A stretch of 57,173 nt of DNA from a virus (Duplodnaviria; Caudoviricetes): positions 1 to 57,173 of IMG/VR virus record IMGVR_UViG_3300038974_000259. The stretch is one strand, 5' to 3'. Below the pieces are notes generated by a model that had not been told where the DNA came from, ran no database searches, and worked only from the letters and a program-made list of their open reading frames with translations. Both the position numbers and the translations under genes were made by a program. Of the stretch, positions 1-57,173 are shown piece by piece; position 1 is the first letter of the stretch, and each line of letters begins with the position of its first letter.

Positions 1-566
1 ACTTTTTCAGATAATGTCTTTATTTTCTTTTGAAGAGTAGACTTTTCGTCTGGAGAAGCTTTATCTAATAGTTCCATCATATCAGAAGTTAATTCATTCA
101 TATAATCTTCTAATTCTTGCATTGTTTTTGAGCTATCATGATGCATATCTTTGCTTTCCATATACATCTTTCTCTTCATTGGACTTTTTCCTTCGCGTTC
201 ATCGCGGAGATATAGCGGATAATCTCTTTCGGTATAGTAACTGCGGCCAGCGCTTCCTTGCGATTGCGAGGGGCTTCTAGTTTGGGCTGAGTTAGACTGA
301 AAGTTATCGGGATAATACATCCTCCCTGACCATTTATCCATATCTCTATAATAGTCGGAAGAAGGCATATACCTTTCTGTGTAATACTAAGGTTCTTGCT
401 TTTCTTCCATCTGCTTATAAATCTCGCAATAATACATTGTCTCGGCAAGGTCTTTGATCATATCAATAACTTCGCCAAGTTCTTTTGTGTCTACTTTTTT
501 TAAATCTCCCATCTGAGATTGAACCTAGGAGATTAATTGTTCTTTAATAGCCTCTAATTGTTTCAT
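1..566 (-). CDS. Uncharacterised protein, gene 5 of five-gene cassette (3' end truncated by window; code 15)
   Basis: ATG at 566 overlaps the upstream TAA (TAATG). The frame is open to the window edge with 2 in-frame TAG: MKQLEAIKEQLISQVQSQMGDLKKVDTKELGEVIDMIKDLAETMYYC... Confidence 0.8.
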
Positions 567-988
567 TACGCCACCCTCTCAATAATTAAATTAGCATTCT
601 GTACATTGACAGGGATAACACCTATATTTTCAACACTTACTTGACTACAACAACCAATCGGCACATCTATATATAGACTTCCGCCAACATTATTGTATTC
701 TTCTACGGCTGCTGGGGTAGAAATCATTGTTGAGGTGGCAACAGGCTCTCCATTAATTGAGATTGCGAGAGATATAGGTCCAACAGTTTCTCCAGTTGGC
801 ACTGCGATATTTGCTCCAAACTCAATTAGGAATCTTGCACGACATTGACCATTTGGTAATCCGCGCAAGCCAACTAGTCCGCTTCCTTCTCTATGAATCA
901 TTGAGCAATTCCCAGGAACTGCTGTTTCAGTAAAAAGGACAGCCTAATTTACAGCAACAGTTTGAGTTGCATTGGCAGTTATTTCCAT
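566..988 (-). CDS. Uncharacterised beta-rich protein, possibly BclA C-terminal-like fold; cassette gene 4 (code 15)
   Basis: AGGAGG RBS, ATG at 988, one TAG at codon 15 (MEITANATQTVAVNQAVLFTETAVPG), joins the 566..901 ORF; 140 aa. Confidence 0.8.
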
Positions 989-1007
989 TACTATTTACCC
1001 TCCTTGA

Positions 1008-1814
1008 TTAGCCCATAAAGCCATTACATACTGGTCCACCATACATTGCGTTATATCCATATGTGCCAAGAGTACCAGTATATGGATTTGCTACAATATA
1101 TGCGGGCTCAGCCGCAGGGCGTAAAGCGTTGATTAAATAAGCGTTCTGCTCGCTTTGAGAAATCTGTCCTTTAAGCGCAGCATTTTCAGTGGTAAGAGCT
1201 GTAATACGATCTTGCACTAAGAAGTCAAGAATTGCGCGAGTGTTGTTATTTGCGTTATCAATGACATCGCGAACACCCGTAGTGACTGCTGCACGATCAG
1301 CACAAGCTTCTGTGGCTAAGTTGTAATTAAGAGTAGCAAAACCACTATCAATAGCATTACGGGTCTGGCAGCAACACAGTTGTTCATCTGCGCTATGTGC
1401 GGCTAACTGAGCCTGAAGAGCATTGGTATTTTGTAATCCAGCAACCGTACCAGCGTTGATAGCCTGAACTGTGTCAAAGCCAGAATTACAAATCTATGAC
1501 TGAGTATTTGCAAAGCCTGTTAACAGACCAGTATTTAATCCGTAGAAGCCATTCGCTACAGCAGAAGAGAGATCTCTGACGCCGCTTGAAACATCATGCA
1601 TATCAAAGTTATAACCAATATCAGCGGTGACATTAGTTCCGGAACCGCCGCCAAAGCCGCCCCAACCATTGCCCCATCCGCCAAAAGCAAACAGGAATAA
1701 TAGAATGATCCACCAGCCGCCAGCTCCCCAGCCGTCGCCGCCAAATAGACCACCATTGCCGCCAGTGACAGCAGCAATATCAGATAAAGAATAGCCTTCG
1801 CTTGAATTAAACAT
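1008..1814 (-). CDS. Gly-rich, hydrophobic-segment, coiled-coil protein with CCC motif; cassette gene 3 (code 15)
   Basis: ORFs 1494..1814 and 1008..1217 are in one frame, joined through a single TAG at 1494; 268 aa. Confidence 0.85.
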
Positions 1815-1828
1815 AAAAAAACCTCCAT

Positions 1829-2062
1829 TTAAATTCCTAATTGTTGCCTAAAAGCAGCAAATTCTTTATCGAAATCGAGGCCTCTTTGAGCGCATAGGTT
1901 TCTCGCGACTTGCTCTATTCCTTTCGTATCATTATTTTGTGCCATTGAGATCAGGTTCTATCCAATTGGACTGTTGCCTGCGGTTTTCTACAACATATTT
2001 AGTAGCATTGCCTAAGGATTGCCACCGCTCCTAACCATTTGCATGAATTGCATAGCATTCAT
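1829..2062 (-). CDS. Small Met/Gln/Asn-rich helical protein; cassette gene 2 (code 15)
   Basis: MNAMQFMQMVRSGGNPQAMLLNMLQKTAGNSPIGQNLISMAQNNDTKGIEQVARNLCAQRGLDFDKEF; 3 TAG; absent from the ORF track. Confidence 0.8.
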
Positions 2063-2080
2063 TTAAAAAGCCTCTTTTCC

Positions 2081-4715: not shown

Positions 4716-5115
4716 AAGTCACTACTCCATTATCATAAGGAAACAGTAAATAATCTTCAACGCCCTCTTCATCCCTTAGCCATATTTCATAATGGTCATT
4801 GGCGTCTTCATCTGTAGCAATATATTTATCCATTTCCTTAATAATAGTAATTACACTTTCTCCAAGAGAAGAGAATTGATCAGATGGAAGCACCATTGGT
4901 TTTTCTCTTTTGAAGACCGTATAATAATTTTTTTGACGACATAAAAACATAAAGTAGTTTGAATCTTTATACTTTTCGTCGAATTTATTTAAGCGTTCTT
5001 GTAGATCTTGAATTTTTATCTTATCATAAGATGGGAGTTGGCTGATAATATTTTGATTCATTTCATACAGGGAAAGAGCAATTTCGCTTTTTCCCTTTAT
5101 TTTTTTATTTTCCAT
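4705..5115 (-). CDS. Hypothetical protein
   Basis: 136-aa ORF in the operon. Confidence 0.75.
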   Translation of the reverse strand: MENKKIKGKSEIALSLYEMNQNIISQLPSYDKIKIQDLQERLNKFDEKYKDSNYFMFLCRQKNYYTVFKREKPMVLPSDQFSSLGESVITIIKEMDKYIATDEDANDHYEIWLRDEEGVEDYLLFPYDNGVVTYGI

Positions 5116-5599
5116 CCTATCTTAATTCCTTCATATTTAATATTCTTTGGTTGCGGCTGCCCCTTAATGGGAGCGTTATGTCTCGTTCTTCAGAAATAAA
5201 TGGCCCATCAATAAGATAATCTATACTATTTAAAATATTATCCAACTTTGGTTCAGGTCTACTCTATAGTTCTTCATAAGTATATCCTGTCCATAGATAA
5301 ATCTTTATATTAGGATAATTATCTCTTACTGTTAGAATAATTAGATTTGTTAAGAATAAATTTTCCTAACAGAGAGGTTCGCCGCCCATAATGTTTAAAT
5401 TCCTTTGTATTCCATTTGCGCATAAATCATTTAATAGAGAAGTTAAAGTTTCTTGAGTAAATTCTTTGCCTCCGGTAAAAGACCAAGTTTGTGGATTATG
5501 GCAGTCTTTACAGTGAAGGGGACACCCCTGGACGAAGAAGGATACGCACATTCCTTCTCCGCCAGCAATGTCATTTCTTATTATTCCAGCGTACTACAT
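5105..5599 (-). CDS. nrdG: Anaerobic RNR activating protein (radical SAM; code 15)
   Basis: Starts ATG-TAG (MQYAGIIRND); QGCPLHCKDCHN, GGEPL, YLWTGY, IDGPF and LRGSRNQR motifs; 4 TAG. Confidence 0.92.
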
Positions 5600-7872
5600 T
5601 ACTCAAGCACCCCCACGTGCTTGACTCTATGATGAACTTCATCTTGCTTACCCTTATTAAAAGCCGTGGTATAGTTACCAGTAAGATAGCCTGTTACACG
5701 CCTTAACTGCTGAATATTGCTGCTGCCGCAAACAGGACAGGCATCATTGATTTCTCCTTGGAAACCGCAATCCAAGCAAGTATCACTCGGAACATTGATA
5801 GCAAAATAAGGAATATCATGTTCCATGGCGTAATTAACAATTTGCTCAAGAGCTTTTGTATTATGAATAGCAGAAGCATCAAGTTCAACATAAGTAATAC
5901 ATCCAGCATTTGAATATCCTGTCAACTGAGATTCAATATCAATCTTTTCAAACGGGCTAAGATTGTGCCATACTGGAACGTGAATAGAGTTTGTGAAGAA
6001 TTCTTTATCGCTTACGTGCTCAATAATTCCCCACTTATCTCTAAACTTTTTAAGCGCGGTATAGCAAAGGTTTTCCGCAGGCGTATAATACACTCCAAAA
6101 TTCAGATGATATTCCTATTTGAATTCTGCGCAACGATTCTTAAATAGTTGCTCAATATGCTTAGCAACTTCCATTCCTTTTTGATCAGTATGGTCACAAT
6201 TCAACATAATCTGTAAAGCTTCCGCGAGTCCTAACTAACCAATTACTAATGTACCATGTTTTAACGCACTACGGATTCCTTCTTCTGGCTTATAACCCAT
6301 CATAGTGTGATTTTCATACATAAACTTTGCGCTTGAAGCATCTTGTGAGCATATCCAATCAAATCTCTCTATTAACATATCTTTTGCTTCATGAATTTTC
6401 TTATCAAGGAGAATTAAGAAAGCATCAACAATATCTATGTCTTCCCCTTTTAAAATTGTCTGTCTTGCTTGCATAGCTAATTCAGGAAGAATAATAGTAA
6501 CAGGACAAATATTGCCACGACCATCTTTTGTCTACGAATTAGTCCCAGGTTCGGCATTGATATCTATCCCGTTCGCTGTGCGGCATCCCATTGTTGAAAA
6601 ATAGGTCTTCGGGTCATTTACATCATATCCAGCATTTCCAGACCAGTCTATATTAGCATAGTTTGGATAGAGCCTCTTTGCTGTACTCTTTAATGCTAAT
6701 TGATATAGATCATAATTAGGGGTCCCAGGTTTATCATTTACACCTTTCATATATTGGAAGATTCCACATGGGAAAATACTTGTCTTATATAAAGTTCCAA
6801 GTCCTTCTATACTTACATCTAACAGAGCTTTTGTAAACATTCTTCCTTCTGGAAGTGTACAAGTTCCATAGTTGATGCTTGTGAAAGGTAATTGATTTCC
6901 AGATCTACTTTGAAGGGTATTAAGATTATGATAAAGACCTTCTACCGCTTGATGAACCTCTCTCTGTGTCATTTTTAAAGCATAATTATAGACTTTCTCA
7001 ACGCAATCATACGGATGAGGTTGTCCAGCTGTTTTATAAACTTCGTCTTCTATAGAAGTTTCCATTGGGTTAATATTAGCTCGTAAAAAGTTTCTTTCTG
7101 GCTCTCTGGCATCTTTAACTTCCCAAACAAAGTCTAATCCATCCATATAGTGTTTAAAGAAACTTTTCCGAATATAAGGAACCATGGTCCAGTCTATATG
7201 AGTTGCGGCTACACCACCAAACTACTGTAGGCTTTGTAGCTAAAAAATTACCGCAACAAGCTGGCACGCTGTGTTCACAGAACCGGCCGGCCGCACGTCT
7301 GTCTGACGAGTATTAAAACCTTTTGCGAGCAACTCGTCAAAGGGAATACTTAAACAGTTGTGAGAGCCAACAGCATAGGCATCAAGGTCATGAATATAAA
7401 TCATATTGCCTTCATGGTTCTCTCTTGCCATTTTTGAAACCAAATTATCCAAAGCATATTGCTTTGTCATATAGGAAGAAGCTTCGCCTATCCGCCCGCC
7501 AAAAGAGTGTTCATCAACGTTAGCATTTTGATTCTACACATTTCTTGCTTCCAGCTTTTCGCCAATAGCGTCAAAGAAATCTGACTTAATATCTCTTGCC
7601 ACTTCTTTCTTATAACGATAGCGGATGTATGCGCGGGCGACATCAGGCCGCTCTGAACGCATTAGATAATCTTCTACCCAATCTTGAATAGTTTCAACAT
7701 TAACTGTAATAGGACTTTTTTCAACCGCTTGTTGAATTTCTGCTGCTATATCTTTAGCAGTGTCATCTTCATAAAGCTATCCATCAACCTCTTTAAAAGC
7801 TGCATTGATGGCTGATATAATTTTTCTTCTATCAAAAATAACGAGAGAACCATCTCTCTTTTCAATAAACAT
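5599..7872 (-). CDS. nrdD: Class III anaerobic ribonucleoside-triphosphate reductase (code 15)
   Basis: ATP cone MFIEKRDG, FQLQSLQQFGG (two Q are TAG), MGCRT, TPAENLC and RRVTGY glycyl-radical motif; one frame of 757 aa with about 7 TAG. Confidence 0.95.
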
Positions 7873-43724: not shown

Positions 43725-43756
43725 ACTTATATAATCCTTTCCTACTTTATATTATA

Positions 43757-43811: not shown

Positions 43812-43821
43812 AAAACAGAAT

Positions 43822-44115: not shown

Positions 44116-45524
44116 TAAACTTCCTCCTGGATATCCTGCGCCTCTTCCATATCTGGTTCAGCAGCCAAATCTTTAGCTATACCTTCCAGAACCTTGAAGT
44201 TAAAGTTTTTGTGCTTATAAGCACAGAATTTTGGACGATTGACAATGCGGATTACAACACCCTCGCGGACATGAGTCTTACCAATAGGGTCTGGACCGTC
44301 ATAGAACTGTTCTGCGATATTTTTGATATATTCTCCAGCAGATACCTCATAGCCTACTGTCATAGTCATATCCTCCATATCGCTACCATTGATATAATCC
44401 TGCCATAGAACAGGAACGCACTTCGCCCCCATTTGCTCGCAACGATAACGCATAAAGTCAGGAGTGTACTCCACAACATCGCCATCTTCGTTAGTCATGG
44501 TCATACGATAGACGTAGAAGTCAGATTGCGGAACTTCAACAGGAAGCTCAAAAGCTCCTATATCATCTATTCCATACTTAACAGCGCATCCATCTGGGTC
44601 GCAACCATAAGAGAAAATAGTAGTCTTGCCGTACTGCTTGGTAAATTCCTTATCTGAAATCTTGCTATTCGCTACAGAAGGCATGATAGGAGTGCCGTTT
44701 GTAGTGAATCCAACAATTTCATAATATACGGTTTCACCCTTGTTTAGCTTGCCTTCGAAGAACAGAGCATGCTGCTTACGGAATTCATTGGAACCGTAGA
44801 AGCCGCCCTCCTCGAAGTTATTGAGAACAACGCGACGAGTTCCAGATACGTAGCCCCAATCATAAATAGGAGTTCCTTCACGCCGCAGGATTCTATCCAG
44901 AAGAGTGCGCTTATATTTTTGAAGCTTCGGTAGATAACCAGTGCGGCCAGAGGTACCATGCATTTTAAGGGTAATCTCAATAAGATCTCCAGGGCGGAAA
45001 GCTTCGAGATTATAAGCAAGCTGTTCAGTATCAGCATGTTCCGCAAACAGTGGCGCTATAGGAACTCTCTTCTTTCGAGTACGATTTCCATCGCTGACAT
45101 GTCCGCGGCGGACATCAACTCTGGGGATATACTTCCGGCAGATTTCATGTCCGTTAACAATTTCAATTTTATCTCCGACTTCAAACTTTGTTTCGCCGGT
45201 ATACTTGAGAGATTCCAGAGGCATAAATAGTCCTTCGGATTTCTCGCCTCGGAGCTTCATCGCGCGGATATTTCGTTTGTCAGGGTCAAGATAACCGCCA
45301 ATATTATTGCCATTTTCGTCCTTTTTACGAACGAGATTATTTTCAGCGCAATATTCTTCGCTTAGCTGGAGGTCTATGGGAAAATAAATTCCCAAATCAT
45401 CAATTTGAGTATTTAAGCCTACGATAACAGAAGCTCCAAAGATTACCGCGATTTGGAGTCTGTCAGCGTTATTATGAGGATGTAGTTCTTTTATTTGAAC
45501 TACATAGCCGCAATGTTCAGACAT
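44115..45524 (-). CDS. RNA ligase (Rnl2/DRB0094-like) with N-terminal OB-like domain
   Basis: HNNADRL N-terminus; TLKMHGT (motif I), YYEIVG, REGVV and YKHK. Confidence 0.85.
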   Translation of the reverse strand: MSEHCGYVVQIKELHPHNNADRLQIAVIFGASVIVGLNTQIDDLGIYFPIDLQLSEEYCAENNLVRKKDENGNNIGGYLDPDKRNIRAMKLRGEKSEGLFMPLESLKYTGETKFEVGDKIEIVNGHEICRKYIPRVDVRRGHVSDGNRTRKKRVPIAPLFAEHADTEQLAYNLEAFRPGDLIEITLKMHGTSGRTGYLPKLQKYKRTLLDRILRREGTPIYDWGYVSGTRRVVLNNFEEGGFYGSNEFRKQHALFFEGKLNKGETVYYEIVGFTTNGTPIMPSVANSKISDKEFTKQYGKTTIFSYGCDPDGCAVKYGIDDIGAFELPVEVPQSDFYVYRMTMTNEDGDVVEYTPDFMRYRCEQMGAKCVPVLWQDYINGSDMEDMTMTVGYEVSAGEYIKNIAEQFYDGPDPIGKTHVREGVVIRIVNRPKFCAYKHKNFNFKVLEGIAKDLAAEPDMEEAQDIQEEV

Positions 45525-45528
45525 ATAA

Positions 45529-46311
45529 TCACTTCTCCTTTATCCAATACCAGTCCATGTATGGAGTATGGTTTGTTAATGCTTTAGAAACGTTATGTGC
45601 GACAGTCTTCTTGTTTGCTTTTGGCTGACTCTTTACAATACGATTGTATGCCCAGGTAATAGCCTGTTCTTTAGATTTAAAATACTTTGGTTTAGCTTCC
45701 TTATTCTTAGCATGAGTGAGTTTGATAATATGCGGCGGGGCTTTAGGCGCTTCTATAATCTTTTGCTCTTCAAATGGACTCTCAATAAGAGGGGGACTAT
45801 TTTTAATATAAGTCATCAATTTTCGCAGTTCAATCGCATCATCCAGAGGGTCATGGGTTTGGTCAGAAATATCAGGTTCAAAATATTTAAGAGCCTTATG
45901 AAGTCCAATAGACTTGGAGTGAAAGAACTTTTTGACCTTGTGCGAATCATCCAAGAGAGAATTCGCAAGATTGAGTACAAAATCTCGGATTTCAGAATCA
46001 TCCATTTTATTTGCTGTGTTAATTAAAAAGATAGGGTCACTATCTCCATAACAGTGGTAAAATACTGGTGTATTTGATTCTGCGCACATTTCACAAATCC
46101 AATTATATAGGTCAGAAAAAGCTTGTTTTGCTTTTGGAGCTCCTATCAGCATCTCTTTTGTGATACCAGTGAGGTTTGTTATGAAGTTTGTAAGTTTGTC
46201 GCCTTTTCGCAGACCTACAAGGCAATCAAAATCACCATATTCGCATGATGCTCCTATAGCAATTACTCTTTCAGAAAATTGAGTTGCCTCAAAGTCAAAA
46301 TATATGTCCAT
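45529..46311 (-). CDS. DEDDh 3'-5' exonuclease
   Basis: YFDFEAT, ITNLTGIT, YGDSD and HDPLDDA. Confidence 0.85.
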   Translation of the reverse strand: MDIYFDFEATQFSERVIAIGASCEYGDFDCLVGLRKGDKLTNFITNLTGITKEMLIGAPKAKQAFSDLYNWICEMCAESNTPVFYHCYGDSDPIFLINTANKMDDSEIRDFVLNLANSLLDDSHKVKKFFHSKSIGLHKALKYFEPDISDQTHDPLDDAIELRKLMTYIKNSPPLIESPFEEQKIIEAPKAPPHIIKLTHAKNKEAKPKYFKSKEQAITWAYNRIVKSQPKANKKTVAHNVSKALTNHTPYMDWYWIKEK

Positions 46312-46343
46312 TGGCTTACCAACCCTTTCATTTTTATATTATT

Positions 46344-46372
46344 ATTATATTATATTTTTATATAAAAATCAA
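46344..46372 (-). promoter_or_regulatory. Sigma-A-like promoter
   Basis: TTGATT-17-TATAAT. Confidence 0.65.
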
Positions 46373-46381
46373 AAAGAAGCT

Positions 46382-46441
46382 GCGGCTGGCGGTGAAGAGG
46401 TCTGAAAGACCAGACCAAAAGTTCATTTCACCGCCGGCCGC
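46382..46441. repeat. 60-nt structured intergenic element, copy A
   Basis: GCGGCTGGCGGTGAA...TTCACCGCCGGCCGC stem; aligns without gaps to 55496..55555. Confidence 0.8.
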
Positions 46442-46444
46442 TAT

Positions 46445-47269
46445 TCACCTTTCAAAAATTGTCGGGAAAACATCATCAGCATAAAACATAGGCGACTTGC
46501 TCAACCACCAGTCAAGTTGTTCTCCGTCTGACTTAAGATAGTCTATCCATCTTTCCCAAATAGCTTTAATATCTTCAGTATCATTAAAGAACTGTTCAAC
46601 ACCAGGTCGCTCAAGTCGGTCAGAGTGATAGTGTGCAAAACACCAAACAGTCCACTTGAAGCACTGACCAAGCTCTTCCAGGAACAGCTCCATAGATTTA
46701 TCAACTTTACTCTGGTCAATACCATTAAGGAATAAGTCAGTAGGCTCCCAGTTAATGGGGCAGGTATGAGAAAGTACAATGTCAACTTCTTCATTAGTTA
46801 AATCTGCTGTACATTGAAGCATTTCCTCTTCAGAAAGTTGTTCATTGTCATACCACCTATATCCCTTTTCAAGTCGATACCACTTATCAACAGAATAAGC
46901 TCCGCCAATCACAGCGACTTTGAATTTCCCAATTCGATAAATACCCCAGTCTTTAAAATACTTGATATTTGGCCACTTCTTTTGGACATAAACTTCACCT
47001 TCTACATCTTCGTCGAAAACAAGCTCCATACCAGGAACATCTTGCGGCCGAGCCTCATGGTTGCCACGGACGCAGTATACCTTAAACTTATACCTTTTGG
47101 ATAAGAAATTTTTCATATGGCTGTCATTCTCGTCCAGGGACCAATTAAGTCCAGCATCGCCAAGGATGATTACAGCGGTTTCTTCGTCTTGTTGAACTTT
47201 TTTATCATAGTTTTTGAACTTGGTGAAATTTCCGTGGCAATCGCCGGTTAAAAGCCAGTGCTTAATCAT
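46445..47269 (-). CDS. Calcineurin-like metallophosphoesterase
   Basis: TGDCHG, LGDAG, RGNHE, GGAYSVD, SHTCP and AHYH. Confidence 0.9.
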   Translation of the reverse strand: MIKHWLLTGDCHGNFTKFKNYDKKVQQDEETAVIILGDAGLNWSLDENDSHMKNFLSKRYKFKVYCVRGNHEARPQDVPGMELVFDEDVEGEVYVQKKWPNIKYFKDWGIYRIGKFKVAVIGGAYSVDKWYRLEKGYRWYDNEQLSEEEMLQCTADLTNEEVDIVLSHTCPINWEPTDLFLNGIDQSKVDKSMELFLEELGQCFKWTVWCFAHYHSDRLERPGVEQFFNDTEDIKAIWERWIDYLKSDGEQLDWWLSKSPMFYADDVFPTIFER

Positions 47270-47355
47270 ATAAATGGTCTCCTTTTATAATTAAAGAGAG
47301 TATGATATAGAAAAACGCTTTTTAAAATGAAATCATTATATAGCCACTTCATTTT

Positions 47356-47637
47356 TTATTTATCCCATCTATGTTCTAAATCAAGAGGACGATTTGATAT
47401 TATTCTCAAATGTCCACAGACTTTACAATAGCACTCTGTTTTATCCTCTGATAAGTATACTCGGTCAGTCTTAAGAGGCTGAGAACAACATAGATATTTA
47501 TCTTTTTTGCTGCGGCCGCAAGGAATAGTCCTTTTCTTGCCAAAATGTTTATATAAAAACCAGTCTATCTCAGCAAAGAAGCGTCTATTTATATCTATAT
47601 ATATTTCAAGAGGCAGGTATTTATTGTTAATTTTCAT
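47356..47637 (-). CDS. Hypothetical Cys-rich protein
   Basis: 93-aa ORF with CKVCG. Confidence 0.6.
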   Translation of the reverse strand: MKINNKYLPLEIYIDINRRFFAEIDWFLYKHFGKKRTIPCGRSKKDKYLCCSQPLKTDRVYLSEDKTECYCKVCGHLRIISNRPLDLEHRWDK

Positions 47638-47962
47638 TAGTTTTCCTCCTGGGCTTTCGTATAATTTTTACAATCTTCGGCTGCTGCGGCCTCATATCCG
47701 CCCCGCAATTAGGGCAAAAGTTCACCAAGTAATCTTCTATGAACCCGCACAATGGGCATTCGTAATAGTCTATCATGTGTGCATAATCTCTGTTTTTTGG
47801 AGGGGTTATCCATCGTGCCCGAACCACAGGCCGAACATCGGCGTCAGGAATGGATTCAATATTGCTTAAGCAAGCGTTCCATCCCGCATTGAAATAATCT
47901 GCTTCGAAGAATCCTCGCTCTTTCTCTTTTGGCAGCGCCTCGCGTTCAATATATTTAGCCAT
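47627..47962 (-). CDS. Zinc-ribbon phage protein
   Basis: IPDADVRPVVRARW...CPLCG...FCPNCGADM. Confidence 0.75.
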   Translation of the reverse strand: MAKYIEREALPKEKERGFFEADYFNAGWNACLSNIESIPDADVRPVVRARWITPPKNRDYAHMIDYYECPLCGFIEDYLVNFCPNCGADMRPQQPKIVKIIRKPRRKTNEN

Positions 47963-47971
47963 TTTTTCACC

Positions 47972-48220
47972 TCATAGCAAAGTAATTAGTTTTAATATAA
48001 AAAGTATTGCTAATGTAAAAACAGAGCAGACAAGTATGGCAGAAGATATAAGTACAGCTATCCATAGTATCTTTAGAAGAAGAGAATTTTCCTCATCTTT
48101 ATCAAGTTTATACGAGAGAAAAGAATATAACATAAATAAAAAAACAGTTATAAGTACTGATATATAGGATATCAAGAGTGTAATTACAGGCATTGAGTAG
48201 TTCATTATATCTTTTCCCAT
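47972..48220 (-). CDS. Two-TM membrane protein
   Basis: Hydrophobic 82-aa ORF in the operon. Confidence 0.6.
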   Translation of the reverse strand: MGKDIMNYSMPVITLLISYISVLITVFLFMLYSFLSYKLDKDEENSLLLKILWIAVLISSAILVCSVFTLAILFILKLITLL

Positions 48221-48501
48221 TCCTCCAACGCGCGTTGTTTGTAATACTTGTATTCATCAATGGAAGCACAATGATTCCAAATGAATCCATCAATACTGTG
48301 TTCTACGCAAGATCTTGAGTCCCACAAAATCCAATCTTTAAAATAACGAAGTTCTGCTATTTTCTCCCAAAAGGTTTCTGGAAAGGGGTGCTGTTTCATT
48401 ATAATTGCCTTTATCCTAACATAGTTTTTATATTCTCTTTTTATTATTTTAACTGTATATCCAGTTTGATCAACATAATAATCTTTATACTTCACTTCCA
48501 T
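48205..48501 (-). CDS. Hypothetical protein
   Basis: 98-aa ORF overlapping its neighbours. Confidence 0.6.
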   Translation of the reverse strand: MEVKYKDYYVDQTGYTVKIIKREYKNYVRIKAIIMKQHPFPETFWEKIAELRYFKDWILWDSRSCVEHSIDGFIWNHCASIDEYKYYKQRALEEWEKI

Positions 48502-48688
48502 CGAATTCTACCTCCATACTCCCATCCGGATTTTTTGCTATTATCATTTGATCCAGCTCAGCAAAAAAGGCATCTCTTCTCTGAATAATCTCCACCTGCT
48601 GGCATCTCTCAATGAGAGCGTTAATTTCATCTTCACTCATCACAAGGTATGAGTCTTCATAATGAGCCATTAGCAATACCTTCCTCAA
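48485..48688 (-). CDS. Hypothetical protein
   Basis: 67-aa ORF. Confidence 0.55.
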   Translation of the reverse strand: MRKVLLMAHYEDSYLVMSEDEINALIERCQQVEIIQRRDAFFAELDQMIIAKNPDGSMEVEFDGSEV

Positions 48689-48701
48689 TCATTTGTGTTC
48701 A

Positions 48702-48914
48702 TTACTCCTTATACTTACCTTGTTCATAAACGTATTCCAAGTATCTAAAATGGTCTTCTGCGGCCCTTTCTGTTTCAAAAGACCGTTTTGAGCTCCAGCC
48801 GCAGCTTCTACAATATGGGTAGCACACTGGACTGAGAGTATCCCAATCTATGAACCTTGTAATGGTTATCTCACCGCCGCAATAAAAACAGCGCATGATA
48901 TTATCGCTCATCAA
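48702..48914 (-). CDS. Lar-like zinc-finger protein
   Basis: CFYCGG...CRSCG...FETERAA. Confidence 0.55.
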   Translation of the reverse strand: MMSDNIMRCFYCGGEITITRFIDWDTLSPVCYPYCRSCGWSSKRSFETERAAEDHFRYLEYVYEQGKYKE

Positions 48915-49226
48915 TTACCCTTCCTCTGCCGGAATGATAGTGGGAGCGTTTTCTATATTATCAATGTGAACATATCGATAAGGCTTTCCGTTAAGTGGAA
49001 CAGCCGTACTTATTGGCAACGCATCCAGATCGCCCAGTCGTCCATGCGGTGGAACTGAGATTACGTTGTATGTTCCTTCAAATGTGCCAATATAGCTTTT
49101 TAACTCTACTTTACCATCTGGATAAACTACTATTGCGCCGTTGAGATTATATACCTCAGGAGTGTTATTTCTCTTTGAATAATCAGACAATTCCGGAAGA
49201 TTTACGCCTTCAATATAAATACTCAT
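48915..49226 (-). CDS. Hypothetical phage protein
   Basis: PPHGRLGD...IENAPTIIPAEE. Confidence 0.7.
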   Translation of the reverse strand: MSIYIEGVNLPELSDYSKRNNTPEVYNLNGAIVVYPDGKVELKSYIGTFEGTYNVISVPPHGRLGDLDALPISTAVPLNGKPYRYVHIDNIENAPTIIPAEEG

Positions 49227-49639
49227 TACTGACCTCCGAAATCTTCGGCGATCTCATGGGCGGTAATCCTTACGGGCTTTAGCATTTGCGGCAGAAACTC
49301 AAGCTCATAACTATACGGACTTACTTCTGTTCCGCTCAGATCCTCTACCGTATACATCGTATAATCGTTCAGATATACAAAGTGCTTTTGGTATACACCT
49401 TTTTCAACCTCTACAATCACAGACAGTTCATCATTGCCCTCGTTTTTCAGAGCAAAATTTCCGGTCATCTGCATGAGCACAGTATCGGTGCGGATATTGA
49501 ACACGGTCAACCGGCGCGTCACGTTGAAATTGTCTGCTTCTTTTGATACATTATATGCGACACGGTCGCTCTCGCGGCATCCAGCCAGAACGCTACACAT
49601 CAAAACAAGTGCAATAACGATTACGAGGATTTTCTTCAC
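49226..49639 (-). CDS. Putative lipoprotein
   Basis: Signal peptide with LAGC lipobox. Confidence 0.8.
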   Translation of the reverse strand: MKKILVIVIALVLMCSVLAGCRESDRVAYNVSKEADNFNVTRRLTVFNIRTDTVLMQMTGNFALKNEGNDELSVIVEVEKGVYQKHFVYLNDYTMYTVEDLSGTEVSPYSYELEFLPQMLKPVRITAHEIAEDFGGQ

Positions 49640-49749
49640 TGTTTTTTCTCCTTTCGCTTTCCTTTTTGTTCATTTACTGCTCTTTTTAAGACTTTACATC
49701 CACCGCATCTATTTCTATTTCTACAAAACCAACAGTTATCATTATCCAT
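49636..49749 (-). CDS. Small Cys-rich hypothetical protein
   Basis: 37-aa ORF MDNDNCWFCRNRNRCGGCK, GTGA overlap with the next gene. Confidence 0.4.
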   Translation of the reverse strand: MDNDNCWFCRNRNRCGGCKVLKRAVNEQKGKRKEKKQ

Positions 49750-49789
49750 GAAAAACCACGGCGGCGGTTGAGGTCTTGGCTTTCTTTTT

Positions 49790-50650
49790 TTATATTTCAT
49801 TCTTTTGTTTTATTTCTACACTTATAACTTCTTTTACAGTGAATAAATCATTTATTACAGAATGTTTCATAATTTGATAAGCTATGTCATCAAGAAGGAA
49901 ATCAACAGAGCTGTCTACTGGGTCATTTTTATGTTTTTCCACAAAATCATCGCAGACATTGTGAATATGATTATAGCTTTTATTTGCTATTTCACGGGCG
50001 TCTTCAAGGTTATAATAACCCATTTTAACATCTTTGAGGTAGTCAGACTTTTTTGAAATTAAACAATCTCCATATGGTTCACCTGCTAAATATCTATCAA
50101 GATATTCTTCAACTCTTAAAAGATGATGTAGTTGTTTTGGATCGTATCCAAACTTCTCAATCCAAGTCATGCGAGAGGGATAATGATGTTCCATAGCGAA
50201 ATATTTTTCAGATGCGATACCCATCATAGATTTTACACTTCTGACAGGATTATAATGCGTAATTTCTTCTCTGTGCTCAATTAATCTATTCCACTGTTTC
50301 TGATATTCAAAATTCCTTATAATAAAATAAGGAGTATATAAAATCTCCAGAAAATTAAGATTTTGCTTTCTAAAAGTCGTCATATATAAACGGACATCTT
50401 TTAGGTCAATGTGTTCGTTGTTTTCTCTGATATGAGTGGTACTACGTGGTTTATACGCAAGAGCAATTTCTTTGAAAGTTGGTGTAGTAATACACTTTGT
50501 GTCTATATCAGAGTTTTCGTGCTCTAAACCATAGTTTTGTGAACCTTGTAAAAAAACTCCAACGACATTTCTCTCTGGAATCATACTGATAGCTTCTGTA
50601 TAGTGATTAAGGACTTTGTCCATGATATAAGAATCAGAATGAAAATTCAT
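49790..50650 (-). CDS. Pol-beta-superfamily nucleotidyltransferase
   Basis: QGSQNYGL...SDIDT, NFLEILYT and YDPKQLHH. Confidence 0.85.
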   Translation of the reverse strand: MNFHSDSYIMDKVLNHYTEAISMIPERNVVGVFLQGSQNYGLEHENSDIDTKCITTPTFKEIALAYKPRSTTHIRENNEHIDLKDVRLYMTTFRKQNLNFLEILYTPYFIIRNFEYQKQWNRLIEHREEITHYNPVRSVKSMMGIASEKYFAMEHHYPSRMTWIEKFGYDPKQLHHLLRVEEYLDRYLAGEPYGDCLISKKSDYLKDVKMGYYNLEDAREIANKSYNHIHNVCDDFVEKHKNDPVDSSVDFLLDDIAYQIMKHSVINDLFTVKEVISVEIKQKNEI

Positions 50651-50874
50651 TTCAACTTCTCCTTTCCAAAATCACTGAGCCAGTATACCATTTTGCCAGA
50701 AGAGTCGGGGCTCTTTCCAGCATATCCGGCGGAGATAAGAGGTCTCATAGTTCCAGAAATAGATTGAGGAGAAATCGACTCGCCAAATTTGCGATAGATA
50801 GCACCTTTAATCTGTACGCTATTCATACAGTCAAAGTCTTTCAGCACACTGATAATCATTTCTTTATTAGTCAT
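50647..50874 (-). CDS. Winged-helix DNA-binding protein
   Basis: AGGAGG RBS, MTNKEMI...SPQSISGTMRPLISAG. Confidence 0.7.
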   Translation of the reverse strand: MTNKEMIISVLKDFDCMNSVQIKGAIYRKFGESISPQSISGTMRPLISAGYAGKSPDSSGKMVYWLSDFGKEKLK

Positions 50875-50910
50875 ATTGAGAACCTCCTTATATAATTCTT
50901 TTATATTATT

Positions 50911-50991
50911 ATTATATAATAATTTTAATAAAATATCAACTTGGGGCAAATTTAATTAAGTTCTCTTCTTTATTTTTCATCTATTATAGAA
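50911..50991. promoter_or_regulatory. Back-to-back promoters: sigma-A-like (minus) and phage-specific (plus)
   Basis: TTGATA-17-TATAAT at 50939..50911; GGGCAAA-N27-CATCTATTATAGAA from 50944. Confidence 0.6.
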
Positions 50992-51016: not shown

Positions 51017-51361
51017 ATGCCTTTAATGACGTGGTTAAGTTCAGAGGGCCGTTGTCATTATAATACAGAGGAAGGAGATTATTCTAATCCAATTCCAGTA
51101 GATTATATGATGATTCCTCCGACTTTTATTACTTATAATGTTTAGCCAATAGAAAAGATAGACGAACAGAAAGTTAGAGAGACCTTATCTAAGATTTTTG
51201 AAGAAAAATCTGAAAGTTTTATTTCTCGCATATAGCTTTTAGTTGAAGAAAAAATGTCTGCTGACATAAATATGTCTATTGATGAGGCCATTCGGCAAGC
51301 ATTTTCTGAGTTAGGCGCGATTTCTAACGAAGAAATTGATGTAATTGTAGAAAATAATTAA
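51017..51361 (+). CDS. Putative virion fibre-associated protein (code 15)
   Basis: AAGGAGG RBS; 114 aa, 2 TAG; ends AISNEEIDVIVENN. Confidence 0.7.
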
Positions 51362-51380
51362 AAGAAAGGAAGATAATAAG

Positions 51381-52388
51381 ATGCCCTATACAAACAAAAA
51401 GTTTCTTGATTCCGCAGGTACCACTCATTTATGGGAAAAGATTAAGGCGGAATTAGATAAGAAAGGTCAAGTAAATAGTGTTTCTGCTGCTGATAATTCA
51501 ATTATCGTTGGAGGAACTGCTTCTGCCCCAACTCTATCAGTAAGAATTTCTCCAAGAGAAGGCAACTCATTAAGCCTTATTGCTCAAAACGGCAGTGAAG
51601 GTTTATATGTTAACGTTCCTACCGCTGCTGTATACAGCATTTCCAAAGATGATGAAGCTGCTTCTGGATATGCCGCAACCTATCACTTAACTGCGGACGG
51701 CGTTGAAACGGGCGCCGCAATCAACATTCCTAAAGATATGGTAGTATCTTCTGGTCAAGTTAAGACTGTTTCTACCGCAGATACCCCATATACTGGCGCT
51801 GCAGTTGGTGATACTTATATTGAACTGACTCTGGCAAATGCTACAAATGACAAGATTTATATTCCTGCTAATAGCCTGGTTGAATATGTCACTTCTGGCT
51901 CTGGCGCAAATGACGCAATTCAAATCGCAATTGATTCTAATCATTAGGTCACTGCTTCTATTAAAGCAGGTAGTATTACTGAAACAGAGTTAGATTCTAA
52001 CATAGTTGCTGCTTTAAGCAAGGCAGATAGCGCAATACAGAGCGTCACTGCTGGATCAACCAACGGCACCATTAGTGTTGATGGCTCTGAGGTTAGTGTT
52101 GCTGGTCTTGGAACGGCTGCCTTTGCTTCCGCTGCGACATTTGCGACAGCTGCTCAAGGAGCATTAGCTGATACTGCTGTTCAAAGCGTTATTGATGGTA
52201 CTGCTTCAAGTGGAAATGGTACTATTATTGTTGATGGTTCTGCTGTGACCGTTTATGGGTTAAGTACTGCTGCCTTTATGTCTGCTGATTCATTCGATGC
52301 TGCTGGTGAAGCAGCTGCCGTATATAGCGCAATTATTGCTCTAACAAATTCTGAAATTGATGCTGCTATTTCTGCGGCTAGCGTATAA
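51381..52388 (+). CDS. Putative virion fibre/decoration protein (code 15)
   Basis: 335 aa via one TAG at 51945; internal repeat ADxAxQSV..G..NGTI.VDGS.V.V.GL.TAAF; ends ALTNSEID. Confidence 0.75.
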
Positions 52389-52394
52389 GTAAAA

Positions 52395-52420
52395 TAAGGG
52401 GAGAGAAATCTCCCCTTATA
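52395..52420 (+). terminator. Intrinsic terminator
   Basis: ATAAGGGGAGA/TCTCCCCTTAT stem. Confidence 0.75.
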
Positions 52421-52444
52421 TTTTGAGAAAAAGGAAGTTTAGAT

Positions 52445-53965
52445 ATGTTAGCAAAGAAATTTCTTGATGCAGACGGCTTAACATACTTTGCCCAATTACT
52501 AAATGATTATCCGAATAATGAAATTCTTGGAGCAGTTATTGATGCAATAGACGGAGAATTAAGCACAAAAGCACCCAATACGTTAGCCACATAGTCTACT
52601 CCTGGACTCATGTCTCCAGCAGATAAAACCGTTATAGATAGTTTTAGTCCAAATATTGCTGAGACATTAACCCCATTAGCAAGCACTTTATATATAGCAA
52701 ATGCTAAGCAAGAAAATGCATTAGGATGCTTGTTAAACTTTGAGCCTAGAATTGGTGCTCGAATTCGTACTACTAATTTATTAAATGTGAATTTGATTAT
52801 TAGTGAATCATATCTTAGCGCGAGTGGAACGGTCACTTCAAGCATTAATGACTATTTAGGAGATTTTATTCCTGTTTCTCCAGGAGATGACATATATTAC
52901 ACTGGAATAGTTGGACCAACAACAGCATCTTCAGTAAACCGTCGTCTTCATGTATATACTGCAAATAAAACGTGGATTAAATAGATGAATTATGCTGGTA
53001 GTTTAAGAGTTGGAGATAGTTGGAGTGCGCATGGTACGGTGCCATCAAACGGCGCATATGTAAGAGTTTCTTGGGGTATTACAGATTATAATATTTAGAT
53101 AACTGTTGGAGCTCCAAGCGGCTATATGCCTTATGAAATTACTCCATTTATACCTCTTTCTACTACAGAAGATCCTGGCACATTAACATTATCGCATTAT
53201 ACCGATTAGACACAAGCAACAGGATAGACCTATAATATTTCCATTCCATCTAATGCAGGCTCAATTTATGCTTGTTAGGTTGACCCTATTGCAGGAATTT
53301 TAACTTCTACTGCTGGATATATAGGGTCTTATAATGGAGAATCCTTGCCTGGTTAGTGGTTTTCCGATAGAGACACTTATGTTGAGAATACTTCGCCAAG
53401 CATTGGCGCACAGGTTATTTATATGCTTGATGAGGAAGATTATGTAGAATATAATCTTACACCTATAATAATTTCTATGTATTATCATACAAATTACTTT
53501 TGTTGTGATTAGAATAGTACAATATTGTCTTTTATTTATTATGCTGAGACTTTAGCAGCTAATCATATTACCGCATACGAAGGTATAAAAGTAGGAAGTA
53601 TGGATTTTTCTGATGCGGATGTAGTGACTTGGAATAATACAGTGAATTTGATTTCTACTAAAGCAAATATAGACTCTCCAACTTTTACTGGAACGCCAAG
53701 AGCTCCTAATCCTACCATTGGAGATAGTTCTACTCGATTAGCAACTACAAGTTATGTTTCGGCAAGAATGAGTAATAATATTGCTCCTTCTGAATCAACT
53801 GCGAAAGCAACAAAAGACTATTCGGTTGGAAAGTATTTAATGTATAATGGATAGTTGTATAAAGTAATTAGTCCAATTTCAAATGGAGAATCTTTAACTA
53901 TAAATACAAATATATCAGCAACAGATGTTGCTACAGAGTTGAATTTATTATTCTCTCAAATTTAA
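52445..53965 (+). CDS. Tail fibre / receptor-binding protein (code 15)
   Basis: ATQ(TAG)STPGLMSPADK, SPTFTGTPRAP...LATTSYV fibre repeat, C-terminal YSVGKYLMYNGQLY; 506 aa with about 9 TAG. Confidence 0.8.
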
Positions 53966-53986
53966 GATAAAGGAGATTTAATAAAA

Positions 53987-54268
53987 ATGCAAAGACAAAT
54001 TTATGAAGTATATGCGAAAGTCGTTGATAGCACCGGAGCATATAATACTCTAAGTGGTTATCCAAAAGTATTTGACTCTCGTTCTTATGATAATGATATA
54101 GACAAAACTTTAAAGCGCGCTACTGGTGAATTTGCTGATACATGGGGCGCTTTTTGTAAGAGAGATGATCATCAATTACAAATGGTTCTTTTAATGACCG
54201 CAAGTGGTTATGTTATTGATAAAAAATGCTTAGGAGATATTGCAGATTTACCTGATGAAGAAAGCTAA
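53987..54268 (+). CDS. Hypothetical protein
   Basis: 93-aa ORF with AGGAG RBS. Confidence 0.75.
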   Translation: MQRQIYEVYAKVVDSTGAYNTLSGYPKVFDSRSYDNDIDKTLKRATGEFADTWGAFCKRDDHQLQMVLLMTASGYVIDKKCLGDIADLPDEES

Positions 54269-54309: not shown

Positions 54310-54735
54310 TTATTCTAAAAAGTAATTAGAAAATAAATTAAAAATCTTTTGCCAGTCTTCTTCTCTAATTCCACCACAGCGATACTTTTCCAAAAGGTTG
54401 TAATAACAGATTGTCAAATATTCGCTGTCCATCCATCCTCGATAAAGGTTATCAAAACTTACTTCATTCCAATCTGGCTTTAATGAAACTATTTTGTCCC
54501 ATACGCTATTCATCGTGCGATAATTTCTGGAAGTCATTTCATCGCGGATTAGTTTGGAGTATGTGATAAAATGGTCAAAATCATAATCGAGAACTTTATT
54601 TACCAAGATATGATTTGGAGTACCCTTTGTTTGAATACTGCCAGCTATGGCGGAGCATTCTCTCCATTGAGCCACAAGCTGTTCTCTTGGTAATACGGAA
54701 ATTAAAGATTTGTGCCAGAGACGAATGATAATCAA
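54310..54735 (-). CDS. Pyrimidine dimer DNA glycosylase-like protein (DenV superfamily)
   Basis: RLWHKSLISVLPREQLVAQWREC...NHILVN. Confidence 0.75.
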   Translation of the reverse strand: MIIIRLWHKSLISVLPREQLVAQWRECSAIAGSIQTKGTPNHILVNKVLDYDFDHFITYSKLIRDEMTSRNYRTMNSVWDKIVSLKPDWNEVSFDNLYRGWMDSEYLTICYYNLLEKYRCGGIREEDWQKIFNLFSNYFLE

Positions 54736-55439
54736 CCCTCTTTCTAATATAAAAATTGTGTTGTTTCTAACTATAAATCCTGTATTGTAATTTTATCTTT
54801 CTGCGTATAAGGGATGCGAATTAATGGTATCTTATGATCTAGGCAATATTGATTTTTTTGTAAATCATGTTTTTGTGTTTTTTCAAAATTTTCTTGAGAA
54901 TTCCATCCAGTTTTTGAGATATATTGTGAAAAATGTTGCTCTCCGTCATATTCAATTAAATACACTAATTGATTATTTTGAAAAATCCCAAAATCAAAAC
55001 GCAGTTTTCTGCCGCTTTCACTGATTAAATCTTTAAAACTATACTAAGTTTTAAATAATATCTGATTTTTTCGTAATATTTCAGCAATAAGAATTTCTAT
55101 TTTTGAATTAATACATCCACAACTCTACTATAACCCCTATCTAAGAGCGTCTCCTTTTACAGTGATTTTATTTCCACAATCACAAACACAATCCCAGTAT
55201 AATCTTCTATCACTTCTAATTGATTTATTTAATACGGTTAGTTTACCAAACCTCTATCCGGTTAAATCTTCATAAAACTTTTTTGGATGAATTCCATTTT
55301 CTTTTAGCCTTCTACTTATTGTATCATTAGAACATCCAAAATATTTTGCTAATTCATAAGTATTCATTTTATGAGAAGTATAATTTTTTATAATAAAATT
55401 AATTTTTTCAGCATCCCACTAAATTCTTTTTCCAGGCAT
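54732..55439 (-). CDS. Free-standing putative homing endonuclease: HTH + Zn module + Vsr/DUF559-like nuclease (code 15)
   Basis: DLTGQ(TAG)RFGKLTV, WDCVCDCG, SCGC, LRFDF, IEYDGEQH and LIRIPY; 8 TAG including a TAG-TAG pair. Confidence 0.85.
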
Positions 55440-55495
55440 ATTTATCACTTTCCTTTTTATTTTATTATATAATATTTTTTTAATAAAATAAAAGT

Positions 55496-55555
55496 GCGGC
55501 TGCCGGTAAAACGCTCTCTGTGATTAGACAAAAAGTTCGTTTTACCTGAGGCCGC
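55496..55555. repeat. 60-nt structured intergenic element, copy B
   Basis: GCGGCTGCCGGTAAAACG...CGTTTTACCTGAGGCCGC, extended by AAAAGT/ACTTTT. Confidence 0.8.
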
Positions 55556-55565
55556 ACTTTTTATT

Positions 55566-57113
55566 TTAGTGGATACAGGCGTATCTCTCGCTGTCCAACT
55601 TATCGTACATCAGGTCGTACGCCGTGACGCCCTTGAGCACCTGTTCGAAGATGACAGGACTGAAGCCGGAGACGTAGCTCACATGGCCGGAGACACGCAT
55701 AGGAATGTTGTCCTGACGAGCCTGAACATTCCAAAACACAAGGTTCGGCATCTTGTAGCCCGCAGCATTCCAACGCTTCTCGATGGTCTCGAAAAGGGTC
55801 TCGTTAGCGAACTGGCCACCGTAACTCCAGCGGTCGCGAGAACGACTGCCGCCGCGCACGCAGTCATTAAACTCCATGTCGGAGATAATGATTACGGAAG
55901 CAGGAATCTCGTCCTGAGAGCAGTGGTTCTGCTTCGCGATGCGGAGCATCTGGTCGAAGACAGCCTCGACGTTGGTGCTTCCACCCCAGTCAGAACGAAC
56001 CATACGATTGATCTTATCGACGAAGTCGACACCCTCAATCTCCACAAAGGTAGGATCGTTGCTGAAGGTGAAAAAGTGGTTGGCGAAGTCGCCCTTATTG
56101 CGCTCGGCGCAATACATGGCGATAGACAGAGCGACAGCCAGAGGGTCGCCATACATGGAACCGGAAGTATCCGCAACGCAGATACCGTTGAAGGTGCAGC
56201 CCTGGAAGTAATCCGCGAGGTTCTCCCAGTACTTGTTGACCATCAGACGCTCAGTATCATCGAGAGCCTGAGACTTGCGGTTGCTACCATAGTAGTAGCC
56301 CCAGTTGCCGAAGGCCATAGCCTCCTTGACAACCTCGTAAGGATAGAGCGCCTTGGCGTTAACCTTGGTGTTCTTGTCCTTGGCGAAATCCTCGTAGGAC
56401 TGGATATCCTTCTCGGATTTCATGCGCTCGAGATCATGACGCGCGAACGCGTTCTTGTAGATCATGCCAGCGCGAGAAGGAATCTTATCGAACTCGATCT
56501 CGTCCCAACGTCCAGCGGACATGAGGCGCTCCAGAACGCGGATGCGCTCACGGAGGATAGACAGAGTCTTGCGGTACTCCTTGTGGTTCATGCCCAGGAA
56601 GCGGCGAGTCTTGTCGGCCAAGACGCGGGAGTCGCGAGAGCTGGTGTTCTCGGATTTCAGCCACTTCGCCAGCAGGGAAGGAGTCTGACACTGGACATCA
56701 AGTTCCAGCTGCTTACGCATAAGCGTAAAAGCGTCCTTCTCCAGTGGAGTACCTACGAAGGTGTAGAGGTCGTCCCAGCGACCAAACTCGGGGACGTACT
56801 TGAGGTTCCGCCTCATCGCGGGAGTATGCTCGCGCGCAAGCCACTTGGTGACTATGCGGAAAAATCTGCGCTCGCCCTGTCCACCACGCACGTCGCGCAG
56901 ATAGAACAGACACTTCAGCGCATATGCCTCATCCTCGTTAAATGCTTTCGCGAAGAGGTTGATAACATCGGCATCGGAGCGAGTTCTATATGCTCCACCG
57001 AGAGCGAACAGGTCGAGCAGACCGTTCAGGGTGGACTTATAGGTAAGAGCGCCATTCTCGGTATAGGTGTAGTTGGACTCACTCTTAAGAGCGCTCATAA
57101 AAGTATTCGCCAT
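55566..57113 (-). CDS. DUF2828-family protein with C-terminal vWA domain
   Basis: TENGA, LRDVRGGQGER, GRWDDL, LLAKW, DTSGSM MIDAS, STN, ISDMEF and VFWNV; TAG-free and GC-rich. Confidence 0.88.
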   Translation of the reverse strand: MANTFMSALKSESNYTYTENGALTYKSTLNGLLDLFALGGAYRTRSDADVINLFAKAFNEDEAYALKCLFYLRDVRGGQGERRFFRIVTKWLAREHTPAMRRNLKYVPEFGRWDDLYTFVGTPLEKDAFTLMRKQLELDVQCQTPSLLAKWLKSENTSSRDSRVLADKTRRFLGMNHKEYRKTLSILRERIRVLERLMSAGRWDEIEFDKIPSRAGMIYKNAFARHDLERMKSEKDIQSYEDFAKDKNTKVNAKALYPYEVVKEAMAFGNWGYYYGSNRKSQALDDTERLMVNKYWENLADYFQGCTFNGICVADTSGSMYGDPLAVALSIAMYCAERNKGDFANHFFTFSNDPTFVEIEGVDFVDKINRMVRSDWGGSTNVEAVFDQMLRIAKQNHCSQDEIPASVIIISDMEFNDCVRGGSRSRDRWSYGGQFANETLFETIEKRWNAAGYKMPNLVFWNVQARQDNIPMRVSGHVSYVSGFSPVIFEQVLKGVTAYDLMYDKLDSERYACIH

Positions 57114-57173
57114 ATTAATTTCTCCTTTTTCTCTTATTGATTTCCTCTTGGACAAGAGGATTTATAAAATCTT

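Follow-up and report, generated by a model that had tools for sequence, protein, structure and literature searches.

The window analysed here is the complete IMG/VR record IMGVR_UViG_3300038974_000259 (Duplodnaviria; Caudoviricetes), a single linear, 57,173-bp contig whose G+C content is 36.5% and which lacks terminal repeats. The phage from which it derives very probably reads the amber codon UAG as glutamine (Gln, Q; NCBI genetic code 15) by the mechanism proposed below. The in-frame TAG codons of its genes were confirmed to be real, numerous and specific, and their alignment with homologs supported Gln as the encoded residue. The nearest sequences were uncultured viral contigs of 139-200 kb whose DnaE was 83% identical, and CheckV estimated the completeness of the window at 35%; the source is an uncultured tailed phage with a large genome of roughly 140-200 kb, of which the window makes up about one third.

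In-frame TAG codons and gene structure

Stop-to-stop open reading frames (ORFs) of at least 100 codons covered 68% of the window under the standard code (code 11) and 92% when TAG was treated as a sense codon. Greedy, non-overlapping gene models were built under code 11 and with TAG, TGA or TAA as sense. The code 11 model contained 88 genes with a median length of 99 amino acids, whereas the TAG model contained 76 genes with a median of 147 amino acids. An initial annotation, made by a model from the sequence alone, had proposed genome-wide recoding of TAG to Gln and a comparison of coding densities under the two codes; this comparison favoured TAG as sense, with coverage rising from 73.0% to 93.3%. 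The controls with TGA as sense (91 genes, 77.3% coverage, median 101 amino acids) and TAA as sense (91 genes, 85.2%, 115 amino acids) gained much less. A curated model, in which six antisense ORFs were removed and five minus-strand ORFs put in (two of the five with PHROG matches), comprised 75 genes and 17,818 codons. At least one TAG occurred in 40 of these genes, giving 125 in-frame TAGs against no TAA and no TGA, although all three codons were common out of frame, TAA and TGA occurring there hundreds of times. The term genome-wide was nevertheless an overstatement of a sense codon that is itself confirmed, because 35 of the 75 genes hold no TAG.

The initial annotation had further attributed nearly every gene break to an in-frame TAG and had cited five motifs, from NrdD, GT2, GIY-YIG, a homing-endonuclease gene and a helicase, all of which were recovered in the curated genes. 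The gene for the anaerobic ribonucleotide reductase NrdD (5599-7872, minus strand) carries seven TAGs, at codons 32, 113, 211, 217, 447, 546 and 586, with codons 211 and 217 forming the motif F-TAG-LQSLQ-TAG-FGG. TAG likewise stands at the indicated residue in SLNS-TAG of GT2, YVG-TAG-A of GIY-YIG and DLTG-TAG-RFG of the homing-endonuclease gene, and the SF1 helicase (12377-13582, minus strand) has a single TAG at codon 378 with its C-terminal TGITRA motif beyond it, at 388. One recognisable break, that of gyrB, was instead traced to an inserted homing-endonuclease element.

Conserved domains ran through the TAG codons. The Pfam NRDD profile was matched over positions 2-562 of 562 (E 3e-145) across all seven TAGs of NrdD. 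In a test independent of gene models, the window was compared by tblastx with two distant phages, Enterocloster phage PMBT24 and phAss-1, on the coding (minus) strand only. The high-scoring segment pairs (HSPs) contained 21 TAG, one TAA and no TGA codons, and the single TAA was the true stop of the gene at 24166-25176. A tblastx comparison with close relatives was discarded, as nucleotide similarity produced HSPs in all six frames and made the stop counts meaningless.

Glutamine at TAG positions

To assign a residue to TAG, the window genes were translated with X at each TAG and aligned by tblastn with 24 loci, namely 23 viral contigs and PMBT24. The alignments covered 64 of the 134 TAG positions of the uncurated gene model and gave 632 cells, in which the opposite residue was Q in 296 (47%), K in 70, E in 57, N in 42, R in 41, L in 12 and W in none. 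Genuine Gln codons of the window remained Gln in 55% of cells, and the background frequency of Gln was about 3%. A lack of Gln enrichment at TAG columns had been named in the initial annotation as evidence that would speak against code 15; enrichment was found instead (47% versus about 3%). The subject codons opposite TAG were CAA (234), CAG (62) and, in cells additional to the 632, TAG (61), and the log-likelihood from the same alignments was -1298 for Q and -2004 for K, the next best residue. Locus by locus, the fraction of Q at TAG columns followed that at true Q columns across the 24 loci, and the spread of other residues at TAG columns was like that at genuine Q columns. Even for PMBT24, which uses the standard code, Q was found in three of 28 cells (11%) at TAG columns and in 17% at real Q columns. 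Among the 15 commonest categories listed, the in-frame stops of the relatives were all TAG and stood mostly opposite Gln of the window (198 cells), indicating that the whole lineage has the same code.

NrdD was examined with 120 full-length homologs, in which the seven TAG columns were Q in 704 of 840 cells and four of them were Q in 120 of 120 homologs. Real Q columns of the same protein were Q in 71% of cells, with a background of 4.2%. In PDB alignments, Q was present in two of three structures at codon 217 and in none of three at codon 211, too few sequences to weigh. Taken as sequence evidence, the alignments support the translation of TAG as Gln in the window, as the initial annotation had claimed.

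Suppressor tRNAs, placement of TAG and alternative explanations

No tRNA gene was detected in the window by ARAGORN or Rfam, and the Rfam scan matched no RNA family. The initial annotation had also seen no CUA tRNA, and had placed the decoder, as a tRNA with a CUA anticodon and/or a release-factor modifier, outside the window. In relatives, 22-35 tRNA matches were present, with 32-35 in those whose DnaE was 83% identical. ARAGORN identified two tRNA(CUA) genes in each of two of the latter (G002 and G003) and one in G005, whose DnaE was 69% identical. G003 was collinear with the window in reverse over its positions 32.0-90.9 kb, with 49 of 76 genes matched. The last gene of the window (55566-57155, minus strand) encodes a TROVE/Ro-like RNA-binding protein (DUF2828/DUF7788, phrog_850), contains no TAG and starts 18 nt from the window end. 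It corresponds to G003 32001-33500, and the tRNA(CUA) pair of G003 lies at 28654-29001 on the same strand, which places the window end about 3 kb short of the pair. Among 80 viral loci fetched with a TROVE-like protein, tRNA(CUA) was found within 8 kb in 38 and tRNA(UCA) in none. In all four closest relatives, with TROVE-like proteins 79-87% identical, a pair of tRNA(CUA) genes was found 2.9-4.7 kb upstream of the TROVE ortholog. With 18 nt of the window left upstream of the TROVE-like gene, the contig most likely stops shortly before the suppressor locus, and synteny supports the expectation that tRNA(CUA) genes lie 2.9-4.7 kb beyond the right end of the window. A search of metagenome contigs for a 45-base exact match to this end returned none.

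The tRNA(CUA) genes of the relatives' loci include those at L058 1155-1229 and 1428-1502, L059 18325-18400 and 18609-18683, L062 2988-3062 and L064 12536-12610. They fell into two families, one of which was nearest to tRNA-Gln. The other, which the relatives have in common with phAss-1 at 76-83% identity, had the tRNAs for Gln and Trp as its closest ordinary counterparts. These tRNA similarities are modest, and it is therefore the alignments, rather than the tRNAs, that carry the assignment of the amino acid. In seven more distant loci (L076, L092, L100, L112, L137, L138 and L146), the tRNA(CUA) genes were unusually long, at 89-95 nt. The Rfam scan of the relatives' tRNA regions gave tRNAs only, with no ribozyme family at gathering score beside the suppressor tRNAs.

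The initial annotation had proposed a search for tRNA-CUA, glutaminyl-tRNA synthetase (GlnRS) and a release factor. Run on the relatives, it found tRNA(CUA), whereas a release factor (PF00472) and a GlnRS/GluRS-type, class Ic synthetase (PF00749) were found neither in the window nor in four relatives' records, two of which are 92-100% complete. The placement of the decoder outside the window was therefore supported for the tRNA, by synteny in four of four closest relatives, and not for the release factor. The missing release factor and synthetase domains make the tRNA alone the likely decoder. Another relative, G004, recorded in IMG/VR as a provirus, had no tRNA match in 127.7 kb, although its genes contain in-frame TAGs. 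Its terminal 15 kb (L069 and L070) showed no host-like flank, with G+C of about 0.37 throughout, and gave no host identity; there too, TAG as sense raised ORF coverage.

The TAG codons were unevenly distributed. A block of 18 minus-strand genes at 41539-50949, the first of the leftward gene array, contained one TAG against 73 CAA and CAG codons, whereas the rest of the window contained 124 against 464 (Fisher p 2e-6). The single TAG of the block is six codons from the beginning of its ORF and precedes an alternative start, the ATG at codon 9. The block encodes an RNA ligase, a polynucleotide kinase, two phosphoesterases, a DEDD exonuclease and an RlaP-like nucleotidyltransferase, its RNA-repair-like genes being located at 41809-47269 and 49790-50650. 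Over 1,559 aligned codons, its orthologs in G003 had a single in-frame stop, compared with 49 in 10,578 codons elsewhere. The boundary between standard-code-compatible and recoded genes is sharp, and a relative has kept it. The positions of single TAGs change quickly, with 12 of 68 aligned window TAGs common to G003 (per-gene sums). The genes for GyrA (27875-30244), both GyrB exons (31770-33305 and 30337-30717), thymidylate synthase and the TROVE-like protein were also free of TAG, the gyrase genes (27875-33305, minus strand) amounting to about 1,426 codons.

At the other extreme, TAG accounted for 22 of the 56 Gln-type codons in three homing-endonuclease-like genes, versus 103 of 606 elsewhere (p 2e-4). 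These genes, all on the minus strand, are a GIY-YIG gene at 24166-25176 (10 TAGs, 48% of Gln-type codons), a GIY-YIG gene at 30875-31588 within the intervening sequence of gyrB (4 TAGs) and a gene with a DUF2726 region at 54732-55448 (8 TAGs, including that of DLTG-TAG-RFG). In the tail fibre gene (52445-53965, plus strand), nine of 14 Gln-type codons (64%) were TAG.

Taken together, these observations would fit decoding by amber-suppressor tRNA(CUA)s that the phage encodes just past the right end of the window, upstream of the main leftward array and on its strand, as in the closest relatives. A host enzyme would probably charge the suppressor tRNAs, as the relatives yielded neither a phage synthetase nor a release factor, and the host would most likely use the standard code. 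Those genes whose products are required before the suppressor builds up, namely the first 18 of the leftward array, gyrase and thymidylate synthase, would avoid TAG. For many genes of replication, lysis, the tail fibre and homing endonucleases, full-length products would be possible only after the switch, which is the temporal gating that has been proposed for other recoded phages.

Several observations weigh against this interpretation or parts of it. The window itself holds no decoder, the location proposed for it comes from relatives whose flanking protein is 79-87% identical, and the early status of the TAG-free block is read from gene order and content. Q was the plurality residue at 28.8 of 62 TAG positions, compared with 156.6 of 267 real Q columns, which suggests that TAG tends toward Gln sites under somewhat weaker constraint. 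Some of the 120 NrdD homologs may themselves have been predicted with code 15, in which case that comparison would be circular; the codon counts made at the DNA level are unaffected. TAA (55) or TGA (19) terminates each of the 74 complete genes, as the initial annotation had stated for every gene that it reconstructed, and one further gene is open at the window edge; this absence of TAG as a terminator is partly by construction. In two genes (34057-34491 and 36017-36793) a TAG immediately precedes TAA and may be a real stop with a back-up. These encode an RNase H and a radical-SAM protein; the TAG-TAA pairs (34057-34062 and 36017-36022) represent either a terminal Gln or a tandem stop, with nearly the same protein under either code, and their occurrence in two of 75 genes is not clearly above chance. 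TAGs were rarer in the last 40% of genes (30, 30, 34, 18 and 13 per fifth; Kolmogorov-Smirnov p 0.005), and 12 genes had a TAG in the first 12 codons, so that some counted TAGs may precede the true starts. The skew would reflect either starts called too far upstream or TAGs favoured early in genes.

Alternative explanations were compared with the same data. Nonsense mutation in an element that is defective or decaying, or faulty assembly, would account for the breakage of 40 of 75 genes under code 11, but the probability of this explanation is negligible: the in-frame codons were exclusively TAG, a codon specificity that refutes decay, they fell at Gln columns, full-length Pfam matches ran through them, and relatives from many samples carried the 198 in-frame TAGs opposite Gln of the window. 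A different residue at TAG (Trp, Glu, Leu, Lys or pyrrolysine) could be argued from the default ARAGORN label of tRNA(CUA), which is 'Pyl', from the presence of tRNA-Trp among the nearest ordinary tRNAs of one family in the relatives (65-68% identity), and from K and E as the next commonest residues at TAG columns. We regard it as highly improbable, as Q led in log-likelihood by about 700 units, with W (0), L (12), E (57) and K (70) far below Q (296) in the 632 cells, and as the invariant Q in four NrdD columns (120 of 120) and the Gln-like spread of other residues point the same way.

A host that itself reads UAG as Gln, with the code merely common to phage and host and no switch involved, would agree with a window in which no decoder was seen. 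This is very unlikely, though, since a host-wide code would not require gyrase and an uninterrupted run of 18 genes to avoid TAG, an avoidance that is kept in a relative. The relatives also carry tRNA(CUA) genes of their own, and cultured distant relatives infect Bacillota with the standard code, among them PMBT24, which showed no in-frame stops. No bacterium is known to read TAG as Gln, which also speaks against a shared host code. Decoding of UAG as Gln by a phage-encoded suppressor thus remains the best explanation of the data as a whole.

A more far-reaching and doubtful proposal is that the TAG-free block, more than a set of early genes, acts as an insurance unit for the code switch, with the homing endonucleases silent until it occurs. 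The standard-code RNA ligase, kinase, phosphoesterases, nucleotidyltransferase and Ro/TROVE-like protein would stand beside the suppressor tRNA array, and these proteins could mend or shield tRNAs, the suppressors among them, when anticodon nucleases of the host attack, which would keep the switch from being blocked. If true, the recoded codon would also restrain the selfish elements that the phage carries, the most TAG-rich genes being homing endonucleases. The TROVE-like gene adjoins the site of the relatives' tRNA array. Its Gln codons were 14 CAG, no CAA and no TAG, while the window overall favours CAA about 2:1; this CAG-only usage hints at a different origin or expression regime.

Gene content and relation to known recoded phages

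Pfam and PHROG scans of the code 15 translations identified the window as a phage replication and nucleotide-metabolism region. Its replication and repair genes comprise those for a DnaE-type polymerase, NrdD and the NrdG activase (5105-5599, 4 TAGs), the SF1 helicase, a RecJ-like DHH exonuclease (14752-16527, 9 TAGs), a DNA primase (16618-17724, 6 TAGs), DnaB, NAD-ligase, GyrA and GyrB, RNase H, UDG and RuvC, the three with coordinates being on the minus strand. Thymidylate synthase and dUTPase represent nucleotide metabolism, and the remaining content includes a lysozyme/CHAP lysin, a PhoH/PIN protein, the tail-fibre cassette, the RNA-repair set and the three homing-endonuclease-like genes. 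A TAG-rich run on the minus strand (33549-39830) contains genes for a methyltransferase (5 TAGs), RNase H (1), UDG (2), GT2 (6), a radical-SAM protein (4), the lysozyme/CHAP lysin (4) and the PhoH/PIN protein (7). The tail-fibre cassette (51017-54268), on the opposite, plus strand, is one of the regions of the window richest in TAG and had no tblastn match in the syntenic G003, as expected for a swappable host-range module.

The gyrB gene is interrupted at its Toprim motif (...MSDADV / DGAHIKNLF...) by about 1.06 kb on the minus strand (approximately 30739-31802), and this intervening sequence carries the GIY-YIG homing endonuclease gene with four TAGs described above. The gene was uninterrupted in G003. 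The insertion matched no Rfam intron family, including group I, even at E values up to 1. The inserted element may be a candidate group I intron, or gyrB may be a truly split gene.

Code 15 has been described in gut phages including Lak, crAss-like phages and the Garnet, Amethyst, Sapphire, Agate and Topaz clades, where TAG aligned best with Gln in diverse clades and suppressor tRNAs were present (bioRxiv 10.1101/2021.08.26.457843). Metaproteomic evidence for the code has been reported in crAss-like phages (PMC9523058). The window resembles these phages in the alignment of TAG with Gln and in phage-encoded suppressor tRNA(CUA), the latter seen in its relatives. Its share of recoded genes, 40 of 75 (53%), lies within the published range of 26-71%, and as in the published phages, where replication genes are variably recoded (bioRxiv 10.1101/2021.08.26.457843), its lysis and tail genes are recoded, its replication genes variably so and some of its genes standard-code-compatible. 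RF2 (release factor 2) has been reported in some Lak and Agate phages (same preprint); unlike in those, no RF2 was found in the relatives of the window. The window contained no terminase or capsid gene by which to place it in one of the named clades. In the model put forward in that preprint, standard-code-compatible genes are expressed first and recoded genes late. The layout of the window matches this model when timing is read from gene order, with the nearly TAG-free block, conserved in G003, on the one side and the lysin (4 TAGs) and tail fibre (9 TAGs) on the other.

Of the individually described phages, phAss-1 (OQ749652) has a siphovirus-type genome of 136 kb, compared with 139-200 kb in the close relatives of the window. 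It carries 36 tRNAs, three of them tRNA-Sup-CTA, and TAG in 41 of 147 ORFs, and it has no dedicated synthetase (PMC10607447). The same source groups it with Enterocloster and Enterococcus phages, tentatively assigns Clostridia as hosts and proposes the genus Phassvirus, whose members share synteny and 80-86% nucleotide identity (PMC10607447). The window and phAss-1 both have Enterocloster phage PMBT24 and Enterococcus phage EF1 among their relatives. Homologs in phAss-1, however, were found for only 18 of 76 window genes, at 24-44% amino-acid identity, which places the window in a different lineage of genus level or higher, within or beside the phAss-1 group. In line with this, phAss-1 was not among the best 25 DnaE matches listed, and the window falls outside Phassvirus. 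An NCBI taxon named 'Caudoviricetes code 15 clade' exists and covers the phAss-1 group.

Cultured relatives were distant, and their hosts are Enterocloster, Thomasclavelia and Enterococcus. DnaE was less than 40% identical to that of Enterococcus phages EF1/VRE9 and of SPbeta-like phages, and Thomasclavelia and Enterocloster phages showed partial nucleotide similarity to the window. PMBT24 (OQ326496.2), Thomasclavelia phage TR-TP1 and EF1/VRE9 have in common with the window a replication module of DnaE-type polymerase, NrdDG, RecJ, primase and DnaB, at 25-46% amino-acid identity in PMBT24. Unlike the window, these phages use the standard code, and PMBT24 was without in-frame stops in the aligned genes.

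The type of recoding found here is already known from gut phages; the window is a clear further example and not a new phenomenon, and it leaves current knowledge of phage recoding unchanged. It provides a well-resolved case in a lineage of phages that have genomes of 140-200 kb and about 30 tRNAs, and it yields a precise, testable prediction of where the missing suppressor tRNA should be located. The standard code splits or truncates 40 of the 75 genes, and annotation, clustering and calls of host and function go wrong unless code 15 is applied. This annotation problem extends to many relatives, including the 284 viral contigs that have one flanking gene in common with the window.

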